DNA of 64,000 nucleotides from Promethearchaeati archaeon (GCA_013166775.1 JABLTJ010000001.1:130237-194236), one strand, 5' to 3'; positions 3,284-53,721 are shown, counted from the stretch's first letter. Program-made: numbers and translations. The notes: a model not told the origin generated them from the sequence alone.

Positions 3284-5593
3284 ATGAATAAAATGTCAAA
3301 AATTGATATTCTTCCTCCATTATTAACTCGAATAGGATTCAATGAAACAGACATTAAAGTATATGCTGCTACATTGGGGCTTGGAAAAGTTACAATAGGG
3401 GAACTATTGGTCGTAACTGGATTAGATCCTCTTACACTCATTCAATCAGTTAAGAATTTAGAAGAATTAGGCTTCCTAAAGAAAACTGTTGGAAGAACTC
3501 CTGTTTATTTTGGAATACTTCCGTTTCTAAAAGAATACATTGTTGTTGAAAAGGATGCTTTATACTCTCTAGATGGAGTAATTAACTCTCTTAAGGCTTC
3601 AAAAGAGGAATACAAAGAGAAAAAGGAGAAATTTGGCGGGACACTAGAACTCACAGGTGAAGGAACTGTTTTCGATATCCACGTGGTTAGTGGTTTAATC
3701 AAGCAGGTAGTTGATTCTCTGTACCAAAATTATTCAGACTACACAGATACAACAGAGATATCGGCTTCTGAATTTGTTGAAGCAATCCGAGCAGAGGTTG
3801 AGGGATATTTAACAAGAATAATGGATCAGCCATTAGTATTTTCTGCACAATTAGAAACCTACATTCAAGAGCTCAATGCTTTCATCAAGCAGTTTCATCA
3901 TACAGCAAATCAACATAGTGAACAGTTGCTAAACTCAATAGATGAGAAGACAAAAGAAACATTCGACAGTCTGAAGAAAATCATTAGTAACGGTCTTGAT
4001 GCTCATACTGACAATCATCATGATTTCTTAGATAAGCTTGCACCAGAGATAGATGTGGAGCTTAAGGAATTAATAGGTAAAATTTCGGAAATCCAAGAAT
4101 CTTTTTCTGATAATTACAACAAGGTTTGGCAAGAAGCATATTCAGGTTGGATTAATGAATCAAAGAGGATTGTTGATGCATTATCACAAAATGTGAATAA
4201 TATTTTCTCTGAGCAAATAAAGCAAACCCAAGAATTACGTAGAAGTGTTGAACAGATAGACAGACAAACAAATTTCTTATCCTCAAAAATTGCTGAGGCT
4301 ATTAATAGCATAGACAGTTCAGCTGTTCTAAAACTAGGAAAGGCTAGAAAACAAATTGAATCACCGTTAATAGATGCAAGAGATACAGTTAGAAATTTAG
4401 CAAACGATCTTAATGAAAGTGGCTTGCAATTAATTGATCAACATGTTCTAGCACTGAATGAAGTCAGAGATGACGTTAGATCGAAACTAGATCATTTCCA
4501 ACTTGATGGTGAAACTACAATAAGAACAAAGAAGAATCAGTTAATAGATGCTACATTAGAAAAAATAGATTTGCTTCCAAACGATTTACTAGATTTACTT
4601 CAAAATCAAACAGAGGAATATGCTAGATCCGCATATGATTCATGCTCACAGGTAACTCAAGAATTGAAACAAACAACAGATGAGCAACTGACAACTATGA
4701 AAGAACAAGCAACAAAGGAAGTTAAGATTTATGCGAATGAGCAATTTCAAGTGATAGAAAAGTTACAATCAGATGTTATAAAAGAATTAAGCAAATCAAA
4801 ACAAGATTCTGAAAAAATGGCTTTGGATTTAAAAGAAAAGCTACAATCTTCTGTTACTAGCTTTAATGAGCAAGTGAATACGAAAAAAGAAGCCTTTGCA
4901 CAAGAATTAACAGATACGAAACAGAATTTGAAAGATTACAAGGAAGAGAATAAAGATCAAATTATCAAGCAAGTTACTGAAGGGGAAGAAATTCAGATTA
5001 ATACTCTAGTGTCACAAGTTGCTTCTGTAATAAAAGATGTAGATGAAATTTTAGTATCTCAACTCGATTCTCTAATGGAAAAAGCGATGACATTCTATCA
5101 AGTCATTAATACTAGAGAAGATGAGTTAAAACAAATAAATAAATCAGCTTCTACTTATTCCTTCGATGGTCAACATAACACATCAATAATTGTTGGAGAA
5201 GAGGCTATTAAAGCAAGTGTTACGGATATTGCAATGCGTTCGAAGTTTGAGTTGCTTTTAGTAACTCCTGATGTCGATGAAGAATTATTAAAAGAAATGA
5301 TGCAATATACAAAAGCTCAACGAATAACATTAGTATCATCTTTTGATAAAAGTAAACACCAAACACTACTTAGACCTTTGTCAGAAAGATTCACAGGTTT
5401 GAAGTTAAAACATTATGCAAAGAAAGATGTTTTCTGTGGAATACTTGATGGTAATCAAGAAGCAATTTTCGCATTTCTTTCCACTGATGAAGTTCCAATT
5501 GCAGTTAGAACAACGAATGATCTTTTATTACAATTATTCAAAGCTGCAATAAATAGAGATGTTCTATTTCATTCAAGTGATGTAGAAGTATAA
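3284..5593 (+). CDS. TrmB-type winged-helix N-terminus + ~600-aa alpha-helical/coiled-coil region + conserved C-terminal alpha/beta domain
   Basis: N-terminal IKVYAATLGLGKVTIGELLVVTGLDPLTLIQSVKNLEELGFLKK resembles a TrmB HTH. The long E/K/Q/S-rich helical middle has no Pro/Gly breaks. The C-terminal ELLLVTPDVDEELLKEMM...ITLVSSFD parallels the C-terminus of the 48081..50333 ORF. Confidence 0.85.
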   Translation: MNKMSKIDILPPLLTRIGFNETDIKVYAATLGLGKVTIGELLVVTGLDPLTLIQSVKNLEELGFLKKTVGRTPVYFGILPFLKEYIVVEKDALYSLDGVINSLKASKEEYKEKKEKFGGTLELTGEGTVFDIHVVSGLIKQVVDSLYQNYSDYTDTTEISASEFVEAIRAEVEGYLTRIMDQPLVFSAQLETYIQELNAFIKQFHHTANQHSEQLLNSIDEKTKETFDSLKKIISNGLDAHTDNHHDFLDKLAPEIDVELKELIGKISEIQESFSDNYNKVWQEAYSGWINESKRIVDALSQNVNNIFSEQIKQTQELRRSVEQIDRQTNFLSSKIAEAINSIDSSAVLKLGKARKQIESPLIDARDTVRNLANDLNESGLQLIDQHVLALNEVRDDVRSKLDHFQLDGETTIRTKKNQLIDATLEKIDLLPNDLLDLLQNQTEEYARSAYDSCSQVTQELKQTTDEQLTTMKEQATKEVKIYANEQFQVIEKLQSDVIKELSKSKQDSEKMALDLKEKLQSSVTSFNEQVNTKKEAFAQELTDTKQNLKDYKEENKDQIIKQVTEGEEIQINTLVSQVASVIKDVDEILVSQLDSLMEKAMTFYQVINTREDELKQINKSASTYSFDGQHNTSIIVGEEAIKASVTDIAMRSKFELLLVTPDVDEELLKEMMQYTKAQRITLVSSFDKSKHQTLLRPLSERFTGLKLKHYAKKDVFCGILDGNQEAIFAFLSTDEVPIAVRTTNDLLLQLFKAAINRDVLFHSSDVEV

Positions 5594-6409: not shown

Positions 6410-7072
6410 TCATAATAGGGATTTGGATTCTTTAGCTGATAAATGTGCTAAATGTAAAGGAATTGGTATTTTATATTTAGAAGACATTAATTGCTTTATT
6501 ATTCTGAAAGAAGACTGGATAGATATTTTGTTTCCTGGTGAGATATAGATTGGGTTCCATTTTTCATTTGATCTATATTGGATTCCAACATCCCTTTCCT
6601 TAATTCTGATGTATTTTGTATTTTTATTTTTCGATGGAAAGTAATTGAAATATCTTAATGGTTTCTTAGCTACTCCAATTGCTGGTTTATTGGAAAGAAC
6701 ACCAAAGATAGTAGCAGAACCAGCGAAGTATGGATGCGCTATTCCGTGACCATCTATCAAGAACAAGTCAGGCATATTACTAAACGCCGGTAGGATTTTA
6801 AGAAAGAATGGAACTTCTCTCAGAAACAAGAAAGTTGGAATGTATGGAGAAGTTACATCATCTTTTAATATTCTTTTTTCGATTATCTCTTTCTTTTCTA
6901 TATCAAAAATAATACCCGCGACATAACCTTGTTTTCCTTTATACGCAACATCCAATGCTCCAACTTTTGAGATTCTCTTCAAACTATCTTTAATTACTGC
7001 TTTTTCAGCTAATCTTTTCTGAAATTCTCTTGCTTCTGACAAATTTTCAGGAAAATTAACTTTCATATACAC
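6410..7072 (-). CDS. nfi: endonuclease V (deoxyinosine 3' endonuclease)
   Basis: GALDVAY..., LIDGHGIAHPYFAGSATIFGV...PAIGVAKK match the endonuclease V catalytic motifs. Confidence 0.9.
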   Translation of the reverse strand: MYMKVNFPENLSEAREFQKRLAEKAVIKDSLKRISKVGALDVAYKGKQGYVAGIIFDIEKKEIIEKRILKDDVTSPYIPTFLFLREVPFFLKILPAFSNMPDLFLIDGHGIAHPYFAGSATIFGVLSNKPAIGVAKKPLRYFNYFPSKNKNTKYIRIKERDVGIQYRSNEKWNPIYISPGNKISIQSSFRIIKQLMSSKYKIPIPLHLAHLSAKESKSLL

Positions 7073-14441: not shown

Positions 14442-15950
14442 CTACTTCGCTTTCTCTTTTTCTTTACTCTTTTCATCTTCTTCTTCTGTGTCCTTTGCTT
14501 CTCCTTTCTCATAATACTCAAGAGATTTTACAATACTCTCGAATACTGGGCTTAGTTTATCTTCATTCAAAACAACTTCGAAAGTTTCTAATTCTCCTCT
14601 ATGATCTAACAAAACATTTTCTTCTTTTAACTTCTCAAATGCATGATAAATAAGATGACCTTTTTGGATGTTAATAGGTGATTCCCTAACATGTAGATGA
14701 ATCTTCTCCCCCACTTTCAAGTGAACAATTATTGGTTTATCTATTTGTATTATTCCACTTTCAACCAAGGCATCTATAATCTGTTTTGCTGTTGTATTTT
14801 CGAAAACATTGGTTCCATCAAGAAACCGATAATTCTTTCTTTCTTCTATTTTTTCTGGTTCTTTCGCTATTATCTCAATTGCTTTAGTAGCTTTGCCATG
14901 GTAATCGCTTAGTTTGCGAATCAATTTATCATATAATTTAGTTCGATCCCCTAAAACAACTCCCAACGCTAAACCATATGATTTGAGATTACAGGCACCT
15001 TCTAAGAGCCATAAGAATTCTTCTGCATTTCTTGTTTGATTCTTTTTTATTTCTTGAGTTAATGTATAGATTGGTCCAATGAGTTTGTGAATATCCGAAA
15101 GAGGGTGATTATTATTTTCCATGAGTAAAGATATCAAACCATCGTTGAGTTTCTTTGTTTCCTTTGAGGAAAGAGAAGCTATTGTCCTCCAATTATCCTC
15201 TTGATCTCTCATGGGGATTCCTAATCGTGAGACAAAGGATGTACAAGCACTTTCATTTCCAGTGAGTCCTGGGAAATAAGGATTTATTGAGTATTTAAGT
15301 GCTAAATGGAGTGGTTGACTCTCTCTTCCAGCGATTCTAGTTCCTTTAGATATGTCCAAGTATTGTTTCTCCCTTCCTTCTTCTAGGATTATCTTATTCA
15401 AACCTATTAATTCCTGATTTTTTGGGTTTACTTGCTTCTTAGATAATCCACCAATTATTGCTAATTCTGCATATTTTGGATAATCATCATCTATGTTTGC
15501 TGAAACAAAATAAACAAGTCCTGCGTTTGAAACCGATCCTAACGGTATTTCCGAATCTTCCAAATTTAAATAAGTTACATCTTCTTTTCTTCTTTCCATT
15601 TCTTTTGAAAAAATAAGTTCTTGATTTACAACAACAATGATGTTTTTTTCTTCTTTAAAAACTAAATCTGGAATATCCTCAATATTATATCCAATGAAGA
15701 AGTAAGCTGAATAATCAAAATTCTTAATCTTTTTTTCTAGATCAGTTACCTCATTCATAAATAAAGAATGAGCTCCAACATCCAAATTGCGTAAACACTT
15801 TAACAAAATACCTGTTGCACATAAATCATCTGGAGTTCCTCTTGCAATAACAACAATATTTCTATTTAGATTTTTTATAATATCTGCGATTTCTTTCGCT
15901 TTATCTTTTAATGATTGATATTTCTCAAAAGGGATGTCTATAGGTGGCAT
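14442..15950 (-). CDS. RecJ/GAN/Cdc45-like DHH-family protein with degenerate catalytic motifs
   Basis: SNAGLVYFVS, AELAIIGGL and LALKYSINPYFPGLTGNESACTSFVSRLGIP match archaeal RecJ/GAN. Motif I reads ARGTPDDL and the DHH position reads VVVNQE. Lies in the conserved uS15-RecJ neighbourhood. Confidence 0.7.
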   Translation of the reverse strand: MPPIDIPFEKYQSLKDKAKEIADIIKNLNRNIVVIARGTPDDLCATGILLKCLRNLDVGAHSLFMNEVTDLEKKIKNFDYSAYFFIGYNIEDIPDLVFKEEKNIIVVVNQELIFSKEMERRKEDVTYLNLEDSEIPLGSVSNAGLVYFVSANIDDDYPKYAELAIIGGLSKKQVNPKNQELIGLNKIILEEGREKQYLDISKGTRIAGRESQPLHLALKYSINPYFPGLTGNESACTSFVSRLGIPMRDQEDNWRTIASLSSKETKKLNDGLISLLMENNNHPLSDIHKLIGPIYTLTQEIKKNQTRNAEEFLWLLEGACNLKSYGLALGVVLGDRTKLYDKLIRKLSDYHGKATKAIEIIAKEPEKIEERKNYRFLDGTNVFENTTAKQIIDALVESGIIQIDKPIIVHLKVGEKIHLHVRESPINIQKGHLIYHAFEKLKEENVLLDHRGELETFEVVLNEDKLSPVFESIVKSLEYYEKGEAKDTEEEDEKSKEKEKAK

Positions 15951-16006: not shown

Positions 16007-16459
16007 TTAGAATAGTAATCCAGCTTTTTGTGGGTCATACTTCCAATCAGGTGCAAAAATGCCTTTCTTCTTGTAATATTTGACCAACCTTCGTATTTTT
16101 GATTCAATGAGTTGTAATCCTCTTTTACCGTGTAAATCCTTCTTATTCTCTTCAAGATGTTTTCTAAGATTACTAGCTTGTTTTACAAGATTCACTAAAT
16201 CTTCAGGATATTTTGGTTTTAAATTAAGATCATCAACTATTGTAGCCATTTTAGTTCCTAAGGCTTCTTTCACGTTAGGTACTCCATATTGGTCTCGGAG
16301 AATTACTCCAATCATGGCAGTTGATTGTCCTTGCCTTCGTAATTCTTCTACCTTCTTACTGATGAACTTCTTATCATGGGTTAACCATTCTGGTGCTTGG
16401 TTTCTATAAGGTCTTGTTGAACTAGCTTTTCCTTTTTTTCTTGCGTGCATCCTTGCCAT
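16007..16459 (-). CDS. rps15: 30S ribosomal protein S15 (uS15/S13e)
   Basis: MARMHARKKGKASSTRPY... and a C-terminal LIESKIRRLVKYYKK helix are typical of archaeal uS15. Confidence 0.9.
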   Translation of the reverse strand: MARMHARKKGKASSTRPYRNQAPEWLTHDKKFISKKVEELRRQGQSTAMIGVILRDQYGVPNVKEALGTKMATIVDDLNLKPKYPEDLVNLVKQASNLRKHLEENKKDLHGKRGLQLIESKIRRLVKYYKKKGIFAPDWKYDPQKAGLLF

Positions 16460-17045
16460 CTATTTCACCATGTTTATTTTTAAGCGAAGGCAGTTTTTGA
16501 GATAATAACTCTCGAAGTGACTTTTGGCGATGGGAATATAAATTCTTGGTTTTGAGAGACATCTCCGCAAAGGTTAGATCGCTTGAAATTGGTCGGAAAA
16601 TAGGATCAAATCCAAATCCTTCTTCCCCCTTCGCCTCATATACTATTTCTCCTTCAGTAACTCCATAATGGAGTGTAATCTCTCCTTCATAAAATAATGC
16701 AGCAACAGATTTGAATCTAGCTTTTCTATTTTCTTTATTCTTCATCAAGGTTAATATTCCTTCATTACTGATTTTTTGGAAAGCATAGGAAGAATAAGGG
16801 CCTGGAAATCCATTTAACGCATCTATAAACAGTCCTGCATCCTCTAGAAAGAAGTTCTTTGTTTTAATTTCAGGATTTTCTTTTATTAAAGTATTGCAAC
16901 TATATAATGCTATTTTTTCAATTTCGTCCTCCTGATTTTCTTCATATTCTAGATTAATCCAATTTATATCTATATTGTACTCCAAGCCAATTTGCTTTGC
17001 TTCTTTGTATTTTGCTTTGTTATGCGTTACGAAAAATAATTTCAT
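16422..17045 (-). CDS. non-canonical purine NTP pyrophosphatase (HAM1/RdgB/ITPase family)
   Basis: MKLFFVTHNKAKYKEA, EDAGLFIDALNGFPGPYSS, GFGFDPIF, SHR. The 3' end overlaps the rps15 start by 38 nt. Confidence 0.9.
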   Translation of the reverse strand: MKLFFVTHNKAKYKEAKQIGLEYNIDINWINLEYEENQEDEIEKIALYSCNTLIKENPEIKTKNFFLEDAGLFIDALNGFPGPYSSYAFQKISNEGILTLMKNKENRKARFKSVAALFYEGEITLHYGVTEGEIVYEAKGEEGFGFDPIFRPISSDLTFAEMSLKTKNLYSHRQKSLRELLSQKLPSLKNKHGEIDGKDARKKKRKS

Positions 17046-21697: not shown

Positions 21698-23263
21698 TCA
21701 GTTTTTTGAACGTAAAACTGTTAGATTTGTTGTTTTACTATATTTCGTATTACTGCTTGATTCAACTAATTTTCTTAAAGACTCCAAGACTTCTTTATCA
21801 TAAAATTCCAATAGTTTATTATTTTCTGTTTCATTCAAACTTCGTTTATTAACTAAAATTGAAAGATCACCGTTTTGATATCTATGTTTAGGAAAATCTT
21901 CATCTTCTAATTCTTTCTTCGTTTCCTTCGATATCTCTCCCTTTATTATCTCATCTTTGTTCAAATCTAGAACATGATTTGAATTTATAGTTATATACTG
22001 CTTTGCTTGCTTTGGTTGAACAGGATTAACTGATAACTGAATTGTTTTTATTACATTTAGATTTTTATCTAGAAAATAGATCTGTTTATCCTCACCTACA
22101 GTTATCAAGCGATTCTTATAGTAACTTATAGAAAGAGGTGTTTTATTGTGAATTTTCTTTTTAATCACACTCTCTAGATTAATATTATCAAATAATTGAA
22201 TTTCTCCATTATTGAAAGCTATTGCTAGAAAATCAGGTGTAACACAAGAACCTGAGATTGGAATTATTTTTGGTATTGTACTCTTAATTTCTAGTTGATG
22301 ATTAAGCGTTACAATCTCCCCTGATTCCAAGCCAACAATAATTAGTCCATCAGATGATTTTTTTAAAGACAAAGGACGTGATGGGAGTTTTATTGATTCA
22401 GTAGGGGTAGTAGTTTCTAAATCTAAAATAACTACAGTAGAATCTAGGGAAGTTGTAATTAGTTTGTTTTCTAGAAATTCAATGCCTGTTATGTGTTTGC
22501 TATGCGGAAAAAGAGTTTCAAACAATTTTCCATTATCCCTTCTCCAAAGGGATACTAAACCAAATTGATGCCCTAAGATGAAGAAATCACCAGTTATAGT
22601 ACAAACAGTTGAAGGAATTCCATATCTTCTAGCCATGCTAAAGAGAATAGTATGGGGATCTTGGTTCTCAAAATCCTTTATGTATCTACTAGCCTTTTTT
22701 ATAGCTCTAATCAATTTCTTCTTACCTATAGCATTGTTTCTGAATTTGGAAAAATCTTCTGCTTTACGAATAGAAATTAATCCGTATTGATCTGTAATTA
22801 TAATTAGATCACCACAAAGAAAGAATCTCTCCATACCTGGAATTTTTATTCTTTTCTCTTCTACCAATTCACTGTCCTTGAATTTCCATTTTTTAAGCAT
22901 GTGATCTCTACTTGCACTGATTACATAATTTCGCCAAGGTTTTCCTCCAATTATTGCTGAAGCATGAGCTTTTTTAGAACCAATCAACGAGAAATCTTTT
23001 AGAGACCAGAGTTTTAATTCTAAATCATTTGAAGTAGTGATTAGAATCTCTTCATCATTTATTTTCTGAACATCATTAATTGAGAATTTATGAGCATATA
23101 AACATCCTATTTCCTCATTGAGATTAGAATCCCAAATGCAAACTCTCCCATCCTCCCCACCAGTAAAAATGTAATCTTCTACCTCTTCTATTTTAGTAAC
23201 ACCTTTAAGATGTCCAGGTTGATGAAATAGGATTTCAATGTGTTCAGTTTCTCTATTACTCAC
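21698..23263 (-). CDS. WD40 beta-propeller repeat protein with helical C-terminal tail
   Basis: Repeats ending GGEDGRVCIWD, ELKLWSL, DHMLKKWKF, GLVSLWRR, DSTVVILDL, plus further blade-like units. Confidence 0.85.
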   Translation of the reverse strand: MSNRETEHIEILFHQPGHLKGVTKIEEVEDYIFTGGEDGRVCIWDSNLNEEIGCLYAHKFSINDVQKINDEEILITTSNDLELKLWSLKDFSLIGSKKAHASAIIGGKPWRNYVISASRDHMLKKWKFKDSELVEEKRIKIPGMERFFLCGDLIIITDQYGLISIRKAEDFSKFRNNAIGKKKLIRAIKKASRYIKDFENQDPHTILFSMARRYGIPSTVCTITGDFFILGHQFGLVSLWRRDNGKLFETLFPHSKHITGIEFLENKLITTSLDSTVVILDLETTTPTESIKLPSRPLSLKKSSDGLIIVGLESGEIVTLNHQLEIKSTIPKIIPISGSCVTPDFLAIAFNNGEIQLFDNINLESVIKKKIHNKTPLSISYYKNRLITVGEDKQIYFLDKNLNVIKTIQLSVNPVQPKQAKQYITINSNHVLDLNKDEIIKGEISKETKKELEDEDFPKHRYQNGDLSILVNKRSLNETENNKLLEFYDKEVLESLRKLVESSSNTKYSKTTNLTVLRSKN

Positions 23264-32547: not shown

Positions 32548-33204
32548 ATGATAGTTCCAGATAGCGTCTTAGCAAAAGAATATAGTCTTGTGATGGAAAG
32601 AGCTTATGCATTTGAACCTATCGCAGGGGATTTAACTAAATGGAGAGGTTTTGTTCCCGCAATTTCAGATGAAGGTGAAATTTTAGTAGAAATTGAAATC
32701 TATCTAACAGATTCATTTCCAGAAACTCCACCACAAGTGAAAATTATTACCCCTATCACACATCCAAATTTAACACATGATAATTTTTTAGAAATGAGAA
32801 TGCTTGCTAGATGGAGATCAAGTTATCACCTTTTTCAAGTGATTGTGGAAACAATTAGGCTATTTTCGAAAGTTCCTGCAAAAATGATTAAGACAGACGC
32901 AGAAACGATTGATCCTCAGAATCAACTTACACCCTTGACAAAACAAAAGGAACAATTGACAATTATTCTCGAAGAAAGGAAGAGAGAATTAAACGAAATA
33001 TCATCAAAAAAACCAAGCCAAGTAAGCAACAAAATATTACAACAAGAGAAACTAAAACATATTGACGATGAAATACTGAATGTAGAAAGTGAAATCTTTG
33101 CAATAGAACAACAATTTGAAGATTATGAAATTTCTAGTATAGAATTCGCTAAGAAATTCTATACTCTTAAGAAAAGATTATTTCTTTTAGAAGCTAAATC
33201 ATAG
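32548..33204 (+). CDS. UEV (inactive E2 variant) + coiled coil + steadiness-box-like C-terminus; Vps23/TSG101-like ESCRT-I candidate
   Basis: UBC-fold signature LTKWRGFV...FPETPPQVKIITPITHPNL (HPN at 32761-32769), with Glu82 at the position of the catalytic Cys. Residues ~115-190 are heptad-rich. The C-terminal EISSIEFAKKFYTLKKRLFLLEA resembles TSG101 VIDLDVFLKHVRLLSRKQFQLRA. Confidence 0.7.
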   Translation: MIVPDSVLAKEYSLVMERAYAFEPIAGDLTKWRGFVPAISDEGEILVEIEIYLTDSFPETPPQVKIITPITHPNLTHDNFLEMRMLARWRSSYHLFQVIVETIRLFSKVPAKMIKTDAETIDPQNQLTPLTKQKEQLTIILEERKRELNEISSKKPSQVSNKILQQEKLKHIDDEILNVESEIFAIEQQFEDYEISSIEFAKKFYTLKKRLFLLEAKS

Positions 33205-40740: not shown

Positions 40741-41568
40741 TTAAACTATATTAGCTTTCTTTAATCGTCCCTGTACAACTGGTTTAAAGAACAGTTTTCT
40801 AATTGAAACTTTCACATAAAGAGGTTTCTTGAAATATTTAGCGACCCTTCGATATGAATCAATCGCACTCCATACACTAGGATAAGCATCAATCTCATTC
40901 ACTATTATCTTATTGAATTTTCTTCGTTTCATTTCTTCTAGGATATTTTCAATTGGCATAATACCTGCTCCAAAGGAGTAATGGGAATCCTCGTTTATTG
41001 TACAATCAGATAGATGTATTTCTTCAAGTTCATCAAAAGGCATCTTATCTAGTAGGTTCATATAGTTCTTAGGTCCGTTCCTTAAATATGAGTGGGCAAC
41101 ATCAAAAAGCCATCCTTGTAGTTGATCTCCTAGTTTATCCTTAAATTTCACATAAAGATCTTTAAACTCTTCATCTGAATAATTCTGAATGTTCTCAACA
41201 ACTAATTTAATATTCAATTGCTTTAGATTCTCCACCAAGGTTTCAAAATTTCCTTTTTCTTCCATAGGGTGAAAAACTCCCAAAATTAACTGAAGATCAT
41301 CTGAATGTTTGTTAATCAATTTGATAATGTCTCCAATCTCCTTCTCTTTGTCTGGATGGGCAAAATCATATCCCTCAATACCTTCTACAGGTAAGTGATA
41401 GGTTGTTTTCATCTTCCCAAGTGAATTGATTATTTCATTAATATTCTTGAAACTAGTTCCTTTTGGATTTATTTCACATGCTTCCATACCTAAAAGATTA
41501 GCAAAACGAACTAAATGTTCACATCCCAAACCCTCATAAGCTTGTATTGTTTGGCCAATCAGCACCAT
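40741..41568 (-). CDS. sugar phosphate isomerase/epimerase-like TIM barrel (xylose isomerase-like / AP endonuclease 2 fold)
   Basis: Alternating beta-alpha pattern; VFHP, VVENI, FDVAHS, IHLSD metal-ligand-like motifs. The start at ATG 41568 avoids overlap with the divergent gene. Confidence 0.7.
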   Translation of the reverse strand: MVLIGQTIQAYEGLGCEHLVRFANLLGMEACEINPKGTSFKNINEIINSLGKMKTTYHLPVEGIEGYDFAHPDKEKEIGDIIKLINKHSDDLQLILGVFHPMEEKGNFETLVENLKQLNIKLVVENIQNYSDEEFKDLYVKFKDKLGDQLQGWLFDVAHSYLRNGPKNYMNLLDKMPFDELEEIHLSDCTINEDSHYSFGAGIMPIENILEEMKRRKFNKIIVNEIDAYPSVWSAIDSYRRVAKYFKKPLYVKVSIRKLFFKPVVQGRLKKANIV

Positions 41569-41627
41569 GTTTTTTGTTGATAAAGAGAAATATATAAACC
41601 AATCTCTTAGATTTACAATGATTATTA

Positions 41628-42386
41628 ATGAAACATCCATCCAAAGCTTTAGTAAGAAAACCTAGTGACACTTACAAAAAATGCGTTTCTTCTCACCCTT
41701 TACATCACACAGTCGATGTACATAAAGCTAGAGAACAACATGAAAAATATTGTAAAACATTATCTGAATTAGGTCTTGAGATAATAGAACTTCCAATAAA
41801 AAATGATTTTCCAGATTCATGTTTTGTCGAAGATAATGCTGTTGTCCATCAGAATAGAGCATTAATTACTCGAATGGGAGAAGAAAGTAGAAGGGGGGAA
41901 GAAGTCGATGTAGAAGAAGAATTACAACAATATCTTGCTGTGAAAAGAGCTGTTGCCCCTGCTACAATTGAAGGAGGAGATGTAATTCATTTACCTGATA
42001 GATTAATTTGTGGAATTACTCAACGAACAAATAATCATGGCGCTAACCAGATGATGGAGTGGTTGAATGTCAAAGTTAATACAGTTACGAATCCTGATAT
42101 AGTTCATTTGAAAAGTTATATGAAATATCTTGGTAAAGAAACAATGATTACTACAGAAAAGTATAGCGAACATCCCCTACTTAAGAATTTGAGATTGCTT
42201 ATTGTACCAAAAGAAGAAGGTTATTCAGTTAATTGTTTGGCAATTGGAGATTCTGTAGTTATGTCCAATAGATTCTCTAACGCAAATGAAATAGTGAGAT
42301 CTGCAGGCTATGAAGTTATTACTCTTAATATGAGTGAGTTCGAGAAATGTCAAGCATCATTAACCTGTCTATCTATTATTTTCTAG
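41628..42386 (+). CDS. N(G),N(G)-dimethylarginine dimethylaminohydrolase-like amidinotransferase (DDAH family)
   Basis: ALVRKPS..., FPDSCFVEDNAVV, ESRRGEE, IEGGDV, VHLKS and C-terminal SLTCLSIIF (catalytic Cys). Collinear with Pseudomonas DDAH as I recall it. Confidence 0.8.
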   Translation: MKHPSKALVRKPSDTYKKCVSSHPLHHTVDVHKAREQHEKYCKTLSELGLEIIELPIKNDFPDSCFVEDNAVVHQNRALITRMGEESRRGEEVDVEEELQQYLAVKRAVAPATIEGGDVIHLPDRLICGITQRTNNHGANQMMEWLNVKVNTVTNPDIVHLKSYMKYLGKETMITTEKYSEHPLLKNLRLLIVPKEEGYSVNCLAIGDSVVMSNRFSNANEIVRSAGYEVITLNMSEFEKCQASLTCLSIIF

Positions 42387-45308: not shown

Positions 45309-45508
45309 ATTCGATGGGACAGGTGATATGAGTTACCTCTTGTAACAGGAGATGATTCCCAAGGACAGGTTTTCTGTTTTTCAACAGCTGATACCGGTCT
45401 AGGATGAGTCCTGAAACGTTCTTTACAATTTCTAGTAAGAAGTTGTCGGAGAAAGTAACTCATACACACATTTTTTATATTGAAATGTAAGAATTGTATT
45501 TGATCGCA

Positions 45509-47029
45509 ATGGCGATGCAGAGTAAAAGCCAAACTATTCCATGGGTAGAGAAGTACCGTCCTGAAACTTACAAGGATTTTGTTGGCAATAAGGAAGAAGT
45601 AAGGAAATTGGAAAATTGGCTAAAGACATGGAATCAGCAAAGAAAAAAAGCTGCATTGCTAGCTGGTCCTGCAGGTGTTGGTAAAACAAGCGTAGTCTAC
45701 TACCTAATAAAGAAATACAACTATGAATTTGTAGAAGTTAATGCGAGTGATAAGCGAAATAAAAAAGCAGTAGAAATGCTTGTTGGTAAATCATCTACTG
45801 AAGGGACTGTTCTACAAGGTGCAAGAGTTCGTAAACTGATTCTTGTAGATGAAGCTGATGGATTATTTGGAAACGCGGATAGGGGTGGAGGTCAAGCACT
45901 TGACAGAGCTATAAAAGCTACAAGAACTCCAATTATATGTACTGCAAACGACCCTTCAGCATCGGTTTTAAAAGCTGCTAAACGAAATATGCTTGTAGTT
46001 GATTTTAAAAGTTTAAAGGATGAAGAAATTCTTACTCTTCTCAAATCAATAGAAGAGAAAGAGAATTTGAATGTTGGTGATGATATACTTTTAGCAATTA
46101 CAAAAAATAGCGGAGGAGATGCTCGTGCAGCTATCAACGATTTAGAGGGTGTATCTGTTGAGGGCATAAAAGGAGTAACATTTTTTTCTCGAAATCAAGA
46201 AAAGAGTTTAGATACTGCTTTAATTAATATATTTCAGGCAGATAGTTATCAATCTGCAAAGAGTGCTGTAGATGATCTTGATGTTGATTACAGAGAATTA
46301 CTGATGTATGTTTTCGAACATGCTTACAAACAAGCAAGTACAAATACAGAATTATTCAATATGTATGAGTTAATTGCTGAAGCAGATATATACCTCTCTC
46401 ACTGTTATAAGAAACAAGATTGGAAATTTCTCAAATATTTCTTTACGTTTATATCCTCTGTAGGTCTAGTTAAAAGTTCACCCTTCAAACATACTAAATT
46501 TGGCTTTCCTGGATATTGGGCACTAATGGGGAGACTTAGGGGTAAAAATGCAAAAATTAATTCAATAGCACAAAAAAGTATAAAATATTTACATTGTTCT
46601 CAGAGAATTTTTGTAAAGGAAATTTACCCCTATCTTAAAATTATTTTCAATTCAGATCCCAAGATGGCTGGAGGGATTGCAGCATTTCTTCAATTCGATG
46701 AAGAGAACATAAGTTTTCTTACAAATGATTCAAGCAAACTCATTAAGGAAATAATGAAACACAAAGAGAGTGCATATGTTCAGATGGCTGAACAATGGAT
46801 GACCAAAGCTAAAGAAGCAGACGTAACAGTTTTTGATTTCATTAAACAGAACAAAACAAAGAAATTAGAAGTAAAAGATAAAAAGCCATCAGTGAAAGAA
46901 AAGAAAAATGAGAAAACTGTTGTTTCAGAAAAAAAAGAAACAGAAGTGAAGAGTGCTCAAATCCCAAAGAGCAAGAGTAAGAAGAAAAAAAGTTCACAGA
47001 TATCTTTAGAGAAATTCATGGAAAAATAA
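45509..47029 (+). CDS. rfcL: replication factor C large subunit
   Basis: PWVEKYRPETYKDFVGN, GPAGVGKTS (P-loop), LVDEADG, arginine finger region, Lys-rich tail ending in a PIP box QISLEKFM (46997-47020). ATG at 45509. Confidence 0.9.
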   Translation: MAMQSKSQTIPWVEKYRPETYKDFVGNKEEVRKLENWLKTWNQQRKKAALLAGPAGVGKTSVVYYLIKKYNYEFVEVNASDKRNKKAVEMLVGKSSTEGTVLQGARVRKLILVDEADGLFGNADRGGGQALDRAIKATRTPIICTANDPSASVLKAAKRNMLVVDFKSLKDEEILTLLKSIEEKENLNVGDDILLAITKNSGGDARAAINDLEGVSVEGIKGVTFFSRNQEKSLDTALINIFQADSYQSAKSAVDDLDVDYRELLMYVFEHAYKQASTNTELFNMYELIAEADIYLSHCYKKQDWKFLKYFFTFISSVGLVKSSPFKHTKFGFPGYWALMGRLRGKNAKINSIAQKSIKYLHCSQRIFVKEIYPYLKIIFNSDPKMAGGIAAFLQFDEENISFLTNDSSKLIKEIMKHKESAYVQMAEQWMTKAKEADVTVFDFIKQNKTKKLEVKDKKPSVKEKKNEKTVVSEKKETEVKSAQIPKSKSKKKKSSQISLEKFMEK

Positions 47030-48080: not shown

Positions 48081-50333
48081 GTGAAAAAAATGTCTTTTAT
48101 TGAAAGATTACAATTAAATCCTGAAGAAAAACAAGTTTACCAACTTCTTTTAGGTGGAGGACAATTAACTACTTTTGAAATAACGCAGTTTAGCAAGTTA
48201 CATTTTTCAAAGGTAAAGGTTGCATTAGATTCTCTTCTGAATAAAGGTGCAGTTGGTGCTTCAGAAGGATATGTGAAAAAATACTACGTGAAAATCCCAT
48301 TGGACTACTTGGGAGCAACAAGCGATCAACTAAGTGAGAATGTTAAAAGCACTCTTGGAAAGACAACATCTTTTCTACAAGAAAAGAAAGGAACATTTAA
48401 TCAATTGAAAGATAATCTATCTGTTAGCTTAAATGAATCAGTATCGAGAAAAGAAGCAGAATTAGATCAGAAACTAACACACACATCTTCTTCAATTAAA
48501 ACCTTAAACCAGCAACAAAAAGAAGATATTAGTCAGAAAACAGGAGATTTTTCAACCAAAATACTCTCTGATCAAGATAATCATCGAAGAAACGTTCAAA
48601 CAACATTGCAGAGTGTATTTGCAGACAGCCTAAATAGCTTGAATGAATCTAAAGCTTCTATCGATTCTTCTGTTTCTAATATTAAAGCAAAAAACGAGGA
48701 GAATCTTACTACATTCACTACAGAGATAGAGGAAAATTCTCAAGCATCCATTAACAAAATATCAGCAACTGCACAGGTAGTAAAACCGAAATTTGATGAA
48801 ATGAATCAACAGTATCTAAATGACATAGATTCAACAATCGCACAAATTAAACAAAACATAGATACTACAAAAATGGATGTAAGAGCATTCAACAGAAGTC
48901 AAACTGAGAAGTATGTTGGATATTCCACTGAAATAACTAGGGATACTGAACAAACAATAGAAGGAATTTCAGAAACAGTTTCAAGTTCTCTTACTGAATT
49001 AAACAATTCCCTTGATATGGTTTTGAACAACAAAGTAGAAGATATTTCTCTTCAAATTAAGGAATCTCTCTCCGCTTTAAACGAGAAAGTATCACAAATT
49101 AAAATTAGTTTATTAGAAGAGCTAATGCAGCAAAAAAACCAAGCAATTTCAAGTTCAGTTTCTCAAATCAGAGAAAGTATGAACTTAAAATTCACTGATT
49201 TAGGAAACAAAGAACAAAATCAGAGGAACAATATAGTTAGTGAAAGAGATATATTCATTCAAAAACTAGATGCAAAATATACTACTGCAATTAATGAATA
49301 CAATGAAAAAATAAATGAAGTCAAAGAGACAGCAATTACTCGATTCAGTGGATTTGAGGAGAATTTAATAGCACAAATTACTGCATCAACAGAAGAGATT
49401 GTAAACAGTATACGAGCTCAATTAGTCAAATTCAAAGAATTATCGACTCAACTAAATACAACACTTATTCAAGATCTTGATGCAGAATCGTCATCTTTGA
49501 AAGAGAATTGGGGAGAAATATCACAAAGATTAGATTTTCTCTCTCAAGAAACTGAAACAAAGCTTAATGAAAAATATAATGAATCTAAAAGTCTACTTCA
49601 ATCAACCATTTCTGAGGTTGTTTCTGGATTAAACAATCATCTTCAAAAAACAATAGAATCTGCGATAAACATTTCGAGAGATGCAATTGATAGTTCAAAA
49701 AGCGGAATACGAGAGAGTAAGGAGCTTGTCTCTGGTAAGTTGACTGAGGAAGTTGACTCTTCTGTTAAGTTTATTGAAGCTTCAGAAAGAAAATTAACAG
49801 ATACAGCTAACTATCTAATAAGTGCTACAATGAAACTAAAAAACGATTTTAGAACCTTAGAAGCCACATCAAGTGAAACGCAAATTCCTCCCGTTCAAAC
49901 AACTTCAATTGTAGGATTAGAAGCTGTTTTGGATCACTTGTCTAGAATTGTAAAAGATACAAAGAGAGGAGTAACTATTATGGTACCTAAAATTGAATAT
50001 ATTCCAACAGAATCTATAAAGCAGCTTCCAGCTACAGCTAAAGTCACTATAATAACTAGTTTAGATGAAGAAATGGATAGAGATTGGATAAATACTATAA
50101 CAGATGTTCAAGCTAATGTGGAATTAAGAAAACTAAGGGATACAGGAACAGGTGCTGAAATGCCTCGTTTCATTGGTGTCGAACGAGAAAATGAAGAAGT
50201 TCTGATTGCTGCTCAAGATGAAGCAACGAATGAAGTTGTTGGTATTCTTAGTAGATCAACATATTTCGCAAAATTAGTATCATACATTGTGATTTCTGAT
50301 TTCGGAAGAGGAAGATCTGTCCAAATAAAATAG
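48081..50333 (+). CDS. second TrmB-type wHTH + giant coiled-coil + C-terminal alpha/beta domain protein (paralog of 3284..5593)
   Basis: N-terminal EEKQVYQLLLGGGQLTTFEITQFSKLHFSKVKVALDSLLNKG; ~550 aa S/T/Q/E/K/N-rich helical region. C-terminal TTSIVGLEAVLDHLSRIVKDTKRGVTIMVP...VTIITS aligns with TSIIVGEEAIKASVTDIAMRSKFELLLVTP...ITLVSS of the other copy. Confidence 0.85.
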   Translation: MKKMSFIERLQLNPEEKQVYQLLLGGGQLTTFEITQFSKLHFSKVKVALDSLLNKGAVGASEGYVKKYYVKIPLDYLGATSDQLSENVKSTLGKTTSFLQEKKGTFNQLKDNLSVSLNESVSRKEAELDQKLTHTSSSIKTLNQQQKEDISQKTGDFSTKILSDQDNHRRNVQTTLQSVFADSLNSLNESKASIDSSVSNIKAKNEENLTTFTTEIEENSQASINKISATAQVVKPKFDEMNQQYLNDIDSTIAQIKQNIDTTKMDVRAFNRSQTEKYVGYSTEITRDTEQTIEGISETVSSSLTELNNSLDMVLNNKVEDISLQIKESLSALNEKVSQIKISLLEELMQQKNQAISSSVSQIRESMNLKFTDLGNKEQNQRNNIVSERDIFIQKLDAKYTTAINEYNEKINEVKETAITRFSGFEENLIAQITASTEEIVNSIRAQLVKFKELSTQLNTTLIQDLDAESSSLKENWGEISQRLDFLSQETETKLNEKYNESKSLLQSTISEVVSGLNNHLQKTIESAINISRDAIDSSKSGIRESKELVSGKLTEEVDSSVKFIEASERKLTDTANYLISATMKLKNDFRTLEATSSETQIPPVQTTSIVGLEAVLDHLSRIVKDTKRGVTIMVPKIEYIPTESIKQLPATAKVTIITSLDEEMDRDWINTITDVQANVELRKLRDTGTGAEMPRFIGVERENEEVLIAAQDEATNEVVGILSRSTYFAKLVSYIVISDFGRGRSVQIK

Positions 50334-50445: not shown

Positions 50446-50622
50446 ATGCCAACAGTTGTAAATGCTGAATGTTGTACTGCTTGTGAGGCTTGTATAGATA
50501 TCTGTCCTGAAAATGTTTATGAACTAGTCAAAGATATTTCCGTACCAGTTAGAAAAGAAGAATGTACTGATTGTGGTCTTTGCATTGACGAATGTCCAAG
50601 TGAATGTATAGACTTTGAGTAA
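50446..50622 (+). CDS. fdx: small 2x[4Fe-4S] ferredoxin (58 aa; not in the ORF track)
   Basis: MPTVVNAECCTACEACIDICPENVYELVKDISVPVRKEECTDCGLCIDECPSECIDFE carries two CxxCxxCxxxCP motifs. GGAG lies 9 nt upstream of the ATG. Confidence 0.75.
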   Translation: MPTVVNAECCTACEACIDICPENVYELVKDISVPVRKEECTDCGLCIDECPSECIDFE

Positions 50623-50745: not shown

Positions 50746-53721
50746 ATGACAATGGCAAACTTAGCAGGTGTATATATTAAAACTCTTTCAAGTTCTAATA
50801 GTGACAATCCTCGCTCAACAATTCTAGCTACAATCAAGAAAGAAAATGTTGTGATAAATCTATGGTCGCCTTGGCATGATATAGGTGAATATATACAACC
50901 TTTCACATCTTTTAGAGTTTTTAACGCAGAAAAAAAAGAGAAGGATGATGCTATTTTTTATTCAGTTGGTTCGAAATCAATTTTCATAGTAGATTCTGAT
51001 ATCTTGATTAATGCAACTGCTATAAATAGTGTGTCTTTTTGTCCTCGAAGTTACTATTTAAATGAAATTGTGGGTGAATTACCCTCTCCTTACGTAGCTA
51101 TAAGGGGATCAATTGTTCATGATTGTTTGAATTCTGCTATAGTAAGTAAATCCAGACCATCAGAGGAGCTTTCGGCTGTACTAGATGCGTTTTCACTACA
51201 ATATGAAAATATTGGATATACAAAAGAAGCTGTTTATCAAGATGTTCGAGAAATGGCTGAATGTCTTGATCCTTTTGTTGAGAATTTGAAAGGTCAAACT
51301 ATACCTGAAATATTGTTTCTATCCCCCTTTTATGGAATTAGGGGAAGAATAGATATACTACATAATGACCATATTTTTGAATTAAAAACAGCAAAACTAA
51401 CAGAAGATAAGGAAATACGTTTTTCAGATCTACTCCAAGTAACAGCGTATCGTTATGGTTTGGAAAATTTTACTGAGCAAACTAAACCAAATGAGGGGAC
51501 AGTAATCTATGTGGGTACAAAAAAAGTTGTAGAAAAGAGTGCTGCACCAAATTGGGGTTTGTTAAGATATGCAATGATTCAAAGAAACACCGCATACAGA
51601 GTTTCTTATTTAGGCTATGAACCTAATATTCTCCCACCCAAAGATAAGAATAAATGCAGAAATTGCTTTGTGAAACACTATTGTGCAATTGTGTGTGCAG
51701 GTTTAAACCAAGAACGCAATTGTTCTACATGTCATCATGAATCATATTGCACAAAAAAAACATTGCCGAAGTCTCATCAGGACTATTTCAACAAATATAC
51801 ACGTTGGGTAAGAGAGGAGAAAAATGAATCTCGTAGGAATTTCTCTGATTTGTGGAAACTCAAAGTTGAACAAAGAGTTGCTAAAGGTAAATCAATTGAT
51901 AATTTAGTTTTGGAAAATGAAACTCAAGAAATAGGACATTCTCGTTTACTATTTTCATGCAATAATCAGTCAGAATTGCGTGAGGGAGATATTGTTGTTC
52001 TTAGTCAAGGTGATATTCTCAAGGGATACATAGTGACAGGAGTGGTGTCTTCCATAAGCGGTTCTTCTATTGAAATTATTCTTCGTTCAATGTCAGAAAA
52101 GATTACAGTTGTGGATCAGTATTCAATTGACGTTGGTTTCAGAAGACAACAAAGAGGTCTTTTCAATCTAGTATTTCGGAAAAACAAGTACAAGGAATAT
52201 GTAATTGAAGAAAAACCTCCTGATATAAAACATGCGAAAGGGAATTACATCTCCAATAACCAAATTCAGAATCAAGCAATTGAAAGAATATTGGGGACTC
52301 AAAATTATTGTCTTATTCAAGGACCAGCGGGAACAGGGAAAACCTATGTAATTGCAAAAGCAGCTATTACTCTTGCAAACAAAGGTGAAAAAGTATTACT
52401 TGCTGCTTTTACAAATAGAGCGGTTGATAATATTTGCAAATATTTGCTGGAAAATGGATATAATGGATTTGTAAGGCTTGGTGAAACTCACTCTATTCAA
52501 TCAGAAATCCGCAACTTTACTCTGAAGGCATATAAAGAAAAGAACGTGGATAGATCCATAACAAAGATTCTTGAGGATATTCCAATTATAGTATCGACAA
52601 CTTCCACAATTTCAAATCCTATTTTTGAGAAGATGGGTATTCAAACTGTAATTATCGATGAAGCCAGTCAAATGACTGAAACAACAGTTCTATCTGCACT
52701 GATTGAAGGAGATAGATTTGTTCTTGTTGGTGATCATAAACAACTCCCACCCGTTATTCAAAATCCAAAGGTATTACAAGAAGGATTGGGGATTTCAATA
52801 TTTGAAAGATTAGCAAACGCGTATTCTGGAGATATACATCTTCTGACGAGACAATTCAGAATGAATGAAAAATTAATTGAATTTTCAAACAACGAATTTT
52901 ATGATGGAAAATTGGAATCCTTTGATGAAGGGATTAGTTCACAATCTCTATCAAATTTAACTAATTTCAAAGAGAAATTTGAAACTCTCAAAAATGCTGA
53001 AATCTACAATCCAGAAAATCCTTTAGTTTTCCTTCCAACTAAAGGTGTTTTTGTACATGATAAAAAACTCAACAAGGAAGAAGCAAGAATAATAAGTGAA
53101 GTTGTTCCAAATCTTCAGAAATTAGGATTGGAGAAAGAACAACTTGGTATAATATGTCCATACAGAGGTCAAGTTAGTGAGATTAGAAGAAATCTACCAA
53201 CTGCTATTACAGTGGACACTGTAGATCGATTCCAAGGAAGTGACCGTGAAATTATAATTATCTCATTAACAGAATCCGAATTTCATGGTAACAAAGGTTT
53301 TGCTGATAATCGTAGGTTAAATGTTGCCATTACTCGAGCAAAGAAGAAACTAATAGTTGTTGGAGATCCAGACATCAGCAAAGGAACTCTAGGTAATTAC
53401 ATGAATTATCTTCAAAATAATGCTAAAATAATTGGAACAATTAAACAAAAAGTTGAGTCAAAGAAACCAATTATGCAGGAAACAATAATAATTGCAGACA
53501 GAATTCTCAAAAAAGCGGAAGAAGTTGACATAGCAAAGTTGAAAGATAAAGAAACCTCAAATAAATGTATCATCTGTCTAGAACCTGTTTATGAGAATGG
53601 GATAGAATGTCCTCTCTGTGAGCACATCTTTCATTTCAACCATCTGACAACCTGGATTAAAGAAAAAGAACGATGTCCTTTTTGTAAAACGAAATTAACT
53701 CTACTTTCTCCTTCTTCTTGA
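50746..53721 (+). CDS. dna2: Dna2-type nuclease-helicase (RecB/Cas4-like Fe-S nuclease + SF1B helicase) with C-terminal RING-H2-like zinc finger
   Basis: Nuclease: Cys99, RID203, ELK212-214, QxxxY231-235, C304x2C307x5C313. Helicase: GPAGTGKT, IIDEASQ, VGDHKQLPP, RQFRMN, DRFQGSDRE, NVAITRAKK. C-terminus (53566-53688): CIICLEPVYENGIECPLCEHIFHFNHLTTWIKEKERCPFC. Confidence 0.9.
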   Translation: MTMANLAGVYIKTLSSSNSDNPRSTILATIKKENVVINLWSPWHDIGEYIQPFTSFRVFNAEKKEKDDAIFYSVGSKSIFIVDSDILINATAINSVSFCPRSYYLNEIVGELPSPYVAIRGSIVHDCLNSAIVSKSRPSEELSAVLDAFSLQYENIGYTKEAVYQDVREMAECLDPFVENLKGQTIPEILFLSPFYGIRGRIDILHNDHIFELKTAKLTEDKEIRFSDLLQVTAYRYGLENFTEQTKPNEGTVIYVGTKKVVEKSAAPNWGLLRYAMIQRNTAYRVSYLGYEPNILPPKDKNKCRNCFVKHYCAIVCAGLNQERNCSTCHHESYCTKKTLPKSHQDYFNKYTRWVREEKNESRRNFSDLWKLKVEQRVAKGKSIDNLVLENETQEIGHSRLLFSCNNQSELREGDIVVLSQGDILKGYIVTGVVSSISGSSIEIILRSMSEKITVVDQYSIDVGFRRQQRGLFNLVFRKNKYKEYVIEEKPPDIKHAKGNYISNNQIQNQAIERILGTQNYCLIQGPAGTGKTYVIAKAAITLANKGEKVLLAAFTNRAVDNICKYLLENGYNGFVRLGETHSIQSEIRNFTLKAYKEKNVDRSITKILEDIPIIVSTTSTISNPIFEKMGIQTVIIDEASQMTETTVLSALIEGDRFVLVGDHKQLPPVIQNPKVLQEGLGISIFERLANAYSGDIHLLTRQFRMNEKLIEFSNNEFYDGKLESFDEGISSQSLSNLTNFKEKFETLKNAEIYNPENPLVFLPTKGVFVHDKKLNKEEARIISEVVPNLQKLGLEKEQLGIICPYRGQVSEIRRNLPTAITVDTVDRFQGSDREIIIISLTESEFHGNKGFADNRRLNVAITRAKKKLIVVGDPDISKGTLGNYMNYLQNNAKIIGTIKQKVESKKPIMQETIIIADRILKKAEEVDIAKLKDKETSNKCIICLEPVYENGIECPLCEHIFHFNHLTTWIKEKERCPFCKTKLTLLSPSS

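Follow-up and report, generated by a model that had tools for sequence, protein, structure and literature searches.

The gene described here lies at positions 50746..53721 on the + strand of a 64,000-nucleotide stretch of DNA from a Promethearchaeati archaeon (GCA_013166775.1 JABLTJ010000001.1:130237-194236), which was analysed over its whole length and is called the window below. The gene is complete, and consists of a single uninterrupted frame of 991 amino acids (aa) plus stop, as had already been described in an earlier reading of the DNA made without database searches (here, the sequence-only reading). Judged by its sequence and its predicted structure, the open reading frame (ORF) is a Dna2-family enzyme of a Heimdallarchaeaceae archaeon with a C-terminal RING-H2-like domain, and it is referred to here as Dna2-RING.

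The domain structure was derived from family matches and from a full-length AlphaFold2 (AF2) model, which was built on 29 orthologs and has a mean predicted local distance difference test score (pLDDT) of 85.7 and a predicted template modelling score (pTM) of 0.86. All domains are encoded on the + strand. The N-terminal domain in the model (residues ~1-82, 50746..50991) is a β-barrel, which is OB-like as in Dna2; residues 2-82 are all in β strands, with pLDDT values of 81-93. It is followed by a PD-(D/E)xK nuclease with Dna2/Cas4-type iron-sulphur (Fe-S) cysteines (residues ~85-335, 50998..51750), recognized by the PDDEXK_1 and Cas4 TIGR00372 families, and then by a helical stalk and a second β-barrel (residues ~342-458, 51769..52119), which is modelled as a long helix over 342-379 and strands over 388-458, and aligns to the stalk and barrel of mouse Dna2. 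The superfamily 1B (SF1B), Upf1-like helicase has two RecA lobes (residues ~500-892, 52243..53421), and is recognized by AAA_11, AAA_12 and its motifs. A linker (residues ~893-940, 53422..53565) connects it to the RING-H2-like domain (residues 941-988, 53566..53709), for which the evidence is a zf-RING_2 match, the AF2 model, Foldseek matches and the conservation of the ligands.

The linker contains a hinge (residues 900-911) and then a conserved short motif (~913-927). The hinge has pLDDT below 50 in the full-length model, and is thus predicted to be disordered. The motif (53482-53526 in the window) has the consensus IIVAD..SKTA, with A917 and A924 near-invariant within the family. Short strands are predicted here with moderate confidence, and the motif could be a docking element.

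All of the nuclease, Fe-S, helicase and tail motifs listed in the sequence-only reading were found where it had placed them. In the nuclease these are C99, RID at 201-203, E212-L-K214, Q231...Y235 and C304-x2-C307-x5-C313, and in the helicase GPAGTGKT at 526, DEASQ at 638, GDHKQLPP at 662, QFRMN at 703, VDRFQG at 826 and RLNVAITRA at 857. An alignment of 19 sequences, with identity down to 25%, shows every helicase motif to be invariant, together with C99, H125, D203, E212, K214, Q231, Y235, C304, C307 and C313 of the nuclease and its Fe-S site. Since the Fe-S, PD-(D/E)xK and helicase residues are invariant, the nuclease and the helicase are both predicted to be catalytically competent.

The assignment to Dna2, proposed in the sequence-only reading, is borne out by the Pfam Dna2 family, by sequence searches against the Protein Data Bank (PDB), and by the fold over the whole length of the model. 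The Dna2 family (PF08696) matches residues 33-181 with 49.5 bits. Other Pfam matches are to PDDEXK_1 (residues 89-313), AAA_11 (3.7e-36) and AAA_12 (6.8e-45), while in NCBIfam the Cas4 model TIGR00372 spans residues 172-314, and matches to IGHMBP2/RecD2-like models are partial. The best sequence match among solved structures, using phmmer, is mouse DNA2 (8.7e-64), whose residues 597-1036 align to residues 475-890. The three best Foldseek matches are also to mouse Dna2 (5eax, 5ean and 5eaw), with E-values of 8e-56 to 1e-54 and template modelling (TM) scores of 0.72-0.74 over 1,017-1,037 columns; the matches that come next (Ighmbp2, Upf1, Sen1) cover the helicase part only.

The single polypeptide thus has the domain order of Dna2, namely an N-terminal barrel, PD-(D/E)xK nuclease, stalk and barrel, and SF1B helicase. 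With mouse Dna2 (5eaw/5ean/5eax) it shares this order, the Fe-S cysteine pattern C...CxxCx5C, the D/E/K and Q..Y residues, and the Fe-S cysteines themselves, C99/C304/C307/C313 aligning to the mouse motif CkyCsqignC. The identity to mouse Dna2 is however only 23-24%, and the archaeal protein adds a second cysteine cluster and the C-terminal RING. Eukaryotic Dna2 has N-terminal regulatory and RPA-binding extensions. The same nuclease-helicase core and Fe-S motif are found in Geobacillus Bad (PMC7430649) and in the Bathyarchaeota protein P0043, and some bacterial and other archaeal Dna2-like proteins score above eukaryotic Dna2 against our query. The tail-less bacterial and archaeal Dna2-like relatives that were examined have no RING and fall outside the RING-bearing clade.

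The second cysteine set follows straight after the Dna2 Fe-S motif (51694-51750 in the window), and reads C317...C326-x2-C329-(H331)-x5-C335. It repeats the CxxCx5C spacing, and is kept across the RING clade and in the tail-less proteins P0043 and P0046, but not in mouse DNA2. The pLDDT in this region is 64-72, and the set may be a second metal site.

The tail of the protein carries the pattern C941-x2-C944-x10-C955-x2-C958-x-H960-x2-H963-x2-H966-x3-W970-x6-C977-x2-C980, encoded at 53566-53688. When all six frames of the window were translated (127,996 residues), this eight-ligand pattern turned up a single time, and shuffling the last 60 residues 200,000 times never produced it. The Pfam family zf-RING_2 (PF13639, gathering score 27.3) matches residues 941-980 with 28.2 bits when the whole protein is searched and 33.8 bits with the isolated tail, and is followed by lesser matches to zf-rbx1, zf-RING_16, zf-C3HC4 and zf-ANAPC11. 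A PDB search with a single sequence found the RINGs of Arkadia, HRD1, RNF165, RNF24 and RNF13, and a profile made from 18 tails matched HRD1 (2.4e-7), then RNF126, Arkadia and gp78. The hidden Markov model (HMM) alignment to HRD1 puts C958 at C3, H960 at H4, H963 at H5, H966 at C6, W970 at the conserved Trp and K981 at the linchpin Arg.

The conservation of the ligands was followed in 47 homologous tails, 31 from close relatives and 16 from distant ones that fit a stricter pattern. H960 is His in 20 of them, and elsewhere is S, N, Y, Q, T, R or K, while C955, which precedes C958 by three residues, does not vary. The conserved ligand set therefore takes C955 and not H960: it is composed of C941, C944, C955, C958, H963, H966, C977 and C980, all eight of which are invariant. 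The family signature is C-x2-C-x9-12-C-x2-C-x4-H-x2-H-x10-C-x2-C, in other words C4H2C2 and not C3H2C3. The spacing given in the sequence-only reading is right, but its choice of H960 as fourth ligand (as in 'C-x-H') is not.

The fold of the tail was examined in an AF2 model of its own, in which the RING part has pLDDT values of 83-89 and a β-β-α layout. The 50 best Foldseek matches to it in the PDB are without exception RING or U-box domains, including HRD1, RNF165/Ark2C, RNF38 and gp78; neither zinc ribbons nor simple treble clefs are among them. HRD1 superimposes with a TM score of 0.75 (TMt) and a root-mean-square deviation (rmsd) of 1.8 Å over 51 columns, and RNF165/Ark2C with an rmsd of 1.3-1.4 Å; several of the RNF165/Ark2C entries are complexes with ubiquitin-charged E2 (E2~Ub). 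A zinc ribbon or treble clef had been named in the sequence-only reading as the outcome that would speak against a RING, and its RING-H2-like assignment is upheld by the Pfam score above the gathering threshold, the matches to RING profiles, and fold matches that are all to RING or U-box domains. From the sequence and the model, which contains no zinc, the tail is predicted to be a two-zinc cross-brace domain of RING-H2 type.

A PHD finger (C4HC3) was considered and rejected: the spacing is similar, but PHD-type Pfam models match weakly and off-register. The zf-HC5HC2H_2 model in Pfam gave an E-value of 0.0013 on tail residues 22-64, ligand 6 is a His, and no PHD domain is described among the 50 fold matches listed for the tail.

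With eukaryotic RING-H2 E3 ligases (HRD1/synoviolin, Arkadia, RNF165/Ark2C, RNF38 and gp78) the tail shares the hydrophobic residue before C2, the F-H pair, the Trp, the C-P-x-C motif and the basic linchpin. It differs from them in that ligand 6 is His rather than Cys, and that the fourth-ligand His is dispensable, with an upstream Cys in its place. An archaeal parallel is known. The small RING-finger protein (srfp) of the Caldiarchaeum/Asgard ubiquitin operons is of RING-H2 type and has the conserved Trp. The Caldiarchaeum protein was shown biochemically to be an active E3; its C3 and H4 are shifted against the usual register, and the second zinc is probably bound by an additional cysteine, C3B (Hennell James et al., PMC5654768). 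Compared by its published description, this irregularity matches the situation of C955, C958 and H960 here. The proteins differ in that srfp is small, stands alone and is in an operon with ubiquitin, E1 and E2, whereas the RING described here is fused to a DNA enzyme of 900 aa, whose gene has no link to an operon of this kind.

The tail is not peculiar to this genome. All 31 close relatives that retain their C-terminus, collected from NCBI, JGI, ENA and Logan and having 49-82% identity, carry it, and one of these is from Ca. Heimdallarchaeum aukensis, whose chromosome (3.08 Mb) is closed. For more distant relatives, 1.84 billion cluster representatives were searched exhaustively with HMMER, and the best 150 hits were examined. 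The tail was present in 18 of them, 17 being new and distant (30-36% identity, about 970-1,010 aa when full length); those that could be named by cluster look-ups are from Kariarchaeaceae and, twice, from a 'Heimdallarchaeota archaeon'. No tail was found in the other representatives among the best 150. Many of these are of bacterial type, one is from Bathyarchaeota, one looks haloarchaeal, and others are longer proteins of about 1,050-1,700 aa. Eukaryotic Dna2 is assumed to be among the longer ones, since the score of mouse DNA2 (219 bits) falls within their range.

A word-indexed search with the tail profile gave two entries of 46-47 aa labelled 'RING finger, partial' and one insignificant match, and a similar search with a 19-sequence alignment gave nothing beyond the known close family. 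The length and label of the two short entries suggest that they are contig-end fragments of a Dna2-RING gene.

A neighbour-joining tree without support values was calculated from residues 1-900, so that the tail columns were excluded. In this tree the tail-bearing sequences, 22 in all, group together in a single clade that divides into two deep branches. This suggests that the tail was acquired once, at the base of the clade. By the origin of its sequences, the clade is one that spans Heimdallarchaeaceae, Kariarchaeaceae and other 'Heimdallarchaeota'. Identity falls with taxonomic distance, and this, with the single clade, suggests vertical inheritance rather than a patchy island gene.

The surface by which RING domains hold E2~Ub is well preserved. 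The hydrophobic position before C2 (I943) is I, V or L in 47 of the 47 tails, and the aromatic position before H5 (F962, preceding H963) is F or Y in all of them; the helix Trp (W970) is present in 44, the Pro after C7 (P978) in 45, and a basic linchpin after C8 (K981, as K or R) in 44. In the alignments to HRD1 and Arkadia, I943, W970, P978 and K981 fall on the matching positions. The tail columns have a mean identity of 68% (18 tails) and those of the whole protein one of 61-64% (28-29 close-family sequences); by this measure the tail is no less conserved than the enzyme.

The sequence-only reading had tied its proposal to the existence of ubiquitin-like conjugation genes in the organism. 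Genome AB_125 is presumably a member of the Heimdallarchaeaceae. Heimdallarchaeota AB_125 is documented to encode ubiquitin, two E2s in which the catalytic Cys is present, and two ubiquitin E2 variants (UEVs) in which it is missing (PMC9192718), and therefore partner enzymes exist in the lineage.

The window itself contains a UEV, at 32548-33204 on the + strand. The E2 fold noted in the sequence-only reading is confirmed by a UQ_con match (40.9 bits), and the protein has a C-terminal coiled coil. In combining a Cys-less E2 fold with a coiled coil it resembles the Asgard ESCRT-I protein UEV-Vps23 (PMC9192718), and it shows, at the level of sequence, that ubiquitin-recognition genes exist in this genome. 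The further idea, that it could be the partner E2 of the RING, was rejected: there is no Cys at the catalytic position (HPNLTHDNFLEMRML), so that it could not be charged, and it lies outside any ubiquitin or ESCRT cluster, its neighbours being ABCE1/RLI and a GT4 glycosyltransferase.

The window is made up of core housekeeping DNA, with genes for ribosomal proteins, TFB, IleRS, RNase P p30, exosome, SBDS and ABCE1. Upstream of Dna2-RING lies a set of genes composed of an RFC large-subunit-like clamp loader (RFC-large; 45494..47029, + strand, with matches to Rad17 P-loop, AAA and an RCF1-5-like lid), a phosphoribosyltransferase, a protein of 750 aa with a TrmB-type helix-turn-helix (HTH) and a very long coiled coil (48081-50333, + strand), and a 58-aa 2x[4Fe-4S] ferredoxin with two CxxCxxCxxxCP motifs (50446..50622, + strand), which is immediately upstream. 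The ferredoxin gene keeps this position in the related loci described below, and its product may, by association, serve the Fe-S nuclease as its own redox or cluster partner. The HTH protein is the upstream neighbour in three Heimdallarchaeaceae loci, and has a paralogue of about 750-770 aa in the window (3284-5593, + strand), which shares the N-terminal TrmB-type HTH and the very long coiled coil.

The upstream set is also found around the orthologs in H. aukensis (53% identity) and JBMXSF010000038 (49% identity). RFC-large adjoins Dna2-RING in the former, and is adjacent or near in the latter. In all three loci, whose orthologs are 49-53% identical, RFC-large, exosome, L37ae, Pcc1 and SBDS make up a conserved Heimdallarchaeaceae block. 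The conserved upstream set argues for a housekeeping role in replication or repair, and against a defence island. Outside this family the neighbours are different. MGMT and DinB-like genes adjoin the gene in one distant tail-bearing lineage (P0054). In another (P0041, locus 10916-17119 of L010, GCA_016839295.1) the stop of Dna2-RING overlaps the start of an MmeI-type methyltransferase/Eco57I gene, after which there are several N6/N4 methyltransferases, so that this locus is restriction-modification-like, unlike those in Heimdallarchaeaceae.

Other genes in the window are a second replication gene besides RFC-large, encoding a DHH-CID (Cdc45/RecJ/GAN-like) protein (14442-15950, - strand), and DNA-repair or nucleotide-sanitation genes at 2434-3162, 6410-7072, 16422-17045 and 40741-41640 (HhH-GPD glycosylase, endonuclease V, Ham1 ITPase and AP_endonuc_2 TIM-barrel). 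A WD40 β-propeller protein of 521 aa (21698-23263, - strand) finds its best partial matches in propeller families of eukaryotes (WDR3, Prp19 and CDC20-like models), all below cut-offs. No RNA families were found in the window using Rfam.

We consider it probable, on sequence and model, that the protein is a Dna2 nuclease-helicase with a tethered RING that acts as an E3 ligase. The body would engage flaps, resected ends or the single-stranded DNA of stalled forks; 5' single-stranded DNA would be threaded through the Fe-S-containing PD-(D/E)xK nuclease, with the 5'-3' SF1B helicase driving the threading. The RING, on a flexible hinge of about 45 residues, would bind a ubiquitin-charged Asgard E2 and activate the transfer of ubiquitin onto proteins at the engaged DNA structure, the candidates being the enzyme itself, a single-stranded-DNA-binding protein, or the clamp or clamp-loader. 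The low-confidence hinge between helicase and RING in the model fits a tethered recruiting module of this kind.

Several observations weigh against this assignment as a ligase. The C4H2C2 ligand set is non-canonical, and the tail, being a small domain, gives only modest Foldseek E-values (the best is 0.014). TFIIH p44/p34 (5nus_B) is among the fold matches of the tail, and some RING folds are structural or serve purely as protein-protein interfaces. Neither in the 64-kb window nor beside the gene at five loci were genes for E1, Cys-bearing E2, ubiquitin or JAMM found, and there is therefore no operonic link to the ubiquitin system. Finally, linkage to RFC-large was not seen in the distant tail-bearing lineages; since their neighbourhoods differ, this linkage is specific to the family.

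The main alternative is that the domain has a RING fold and is not a ligase, but is a zinc-stabilised module for protein-protein or intramolecular regulation, which docks PCNA, RPA or RFC or gates the helicase in cis. There are precedents, in that the RING-like CH domain of Upf1 binds Upf2 and the RING of TFIIH p44 binds p34. Not only the p44/p34 match, the irregular ligands and the unlinked ubiquitin genes would be in keeping with such a module, but also the fact that Upf1 is the closest helicase family after Dna2, and the conserved linker motif at 913-927, which could dock a partner. We nevertheless regard it as rather unlikely. The four positions that hold E2~Ub are kept in 44-47 of 47 tails, some of them from proteins only 25% identical overall, and the best matches in both sequence and fold are catalytically active RING-H2 E3s, several of which have been solved with E2~Ub. 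The low-confidence hinge is also more easily reconciled with a tethered recruiter than with a regulatory domain held in a fixed place.

Bacterial defence systems with ubiquitin-like proteins have recently been described, and the sequence-only reading had suggested a defence-type enzyme as an alternative. Dna2-RING would then be an anti-virus or anti-plasmid effector, whose RING couples the degradation of foreign DNA to ubiquitin-like conjugation. PADLOC and NCBIfam give partial matches to MkoA (229 bits), PLuB, ProA, Hhe and Cas4, and the P0041 gene abuts its cluster of MmeI-type methyltransferase genes. However, these matches are confined to the generic SF1B core or to the Cas4-like nuclease and lie far below cut-offs (278.9 bits against 999 for PLuB), that to MkoA being limited to residues 606-901, while the fold identity over the whole length is Dna2. 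The gene sits in a conserved housekeeping block in Heimdallarchaeaceae, and its divergence tracks taxonomy within a single clade. Membership in Mokosh (MkoA), PLuB, ProA, Hhe or Cas4-containing systems was therefore rejected on the partial matches and the housekeeping context, and a role in defence is considered very unlikely, although in some of the distant lineages it is conceivable. An assembly, frameshift or gene-calling artefact, in which two separate genes, one for Dna2 and one for a small RING protein, would have been joined, is so improbable that it can be set aside: every full-length ortholog has the tail, as a continuous ORF in the 31 close and 16 distant relatives, and these come from independent assemblies, one of them a closed chromosome. 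It is concluded that a Dna2 enzyme with a tethered RING, probably an E3 ligase, remains the best description of the gene.

The principle of a nucleic-acid motor that bears its own RING or RING-like module is familiar from eukaryotes, in Rad5/HLTF/SHPRH, in ZNFX1/NFX1-type proteins and in the CH domain of Upf1. Rad5, HLTF and SHPRH belong to the SF2 Snf2 motors, and their RING is an insertion within the ATPase. In Upf1 the CH domain is N-terminal and mainly regulatory. ZNFX1 and Upf1 have the SF1B helicase family in common with Dna2-RING, and to our knowledge none of the proteins of these three types has a Dna2 nuclease. The parts of the system are thus already known, namely Dna2, RING-H2 domains, Asgard ubiquitin systems and eukaryotic motor-RING fusions. 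What appears to be new is the complete Dna2 with a C-terminal C4H2C2 RING, throughout a Heimdallarchaeial clade. No published description of a Dna2-RING fusion was found in the literature on Asgard Dna2 and on prokaryotic RING-helicase fusions, in a search that covered few subscription journals. In public annotations these proteins are called 'AAA domain-containing protein' or 'Dna2', and the only mention of a RING is on a 46-aa fragment.

Archaeal ubiquitylation is known mainly through small RING proteins encoded in operons, and through its link to ESCRT. A RING that is fixed to a Dna2 enzyme names a process for an Asgard E3, namely the processing of DNA flaps, ends and forks. If the ligase assignment is true, Asgard Dna2 would signal in cis, where eukaryotes use separate E3s (Rad18, Rad5/HLTF, RFWD3), and its targets would be archaeal RPA, PCNA, the clamp loader, or Dna2 itself for turnover. 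The system has the advantage of being a single protein with obvious sites for point mutants (I943, W970, K981 and the ligand cysteines). Should the RING turn out not to be an E3, it would still be a conserved, lineage-specific regulatory module on a universal-looking replication enzyme.

Of all archaeal classes, it is the Heimdallarchaeia that are most often placed nearest to eukaryotes. We suggest, tentatively, that a substantial part of this class may hard-wire ubiquitin-ligase activity to a replication/repair nuclease-helicase, and that ubiquitin signalling at flaps, resected ends and stalled forks may predate eukaryotes. This would be relevant to the timing, in eukaryogenesis, of the coupling between ubiquitin and genome maintenance.

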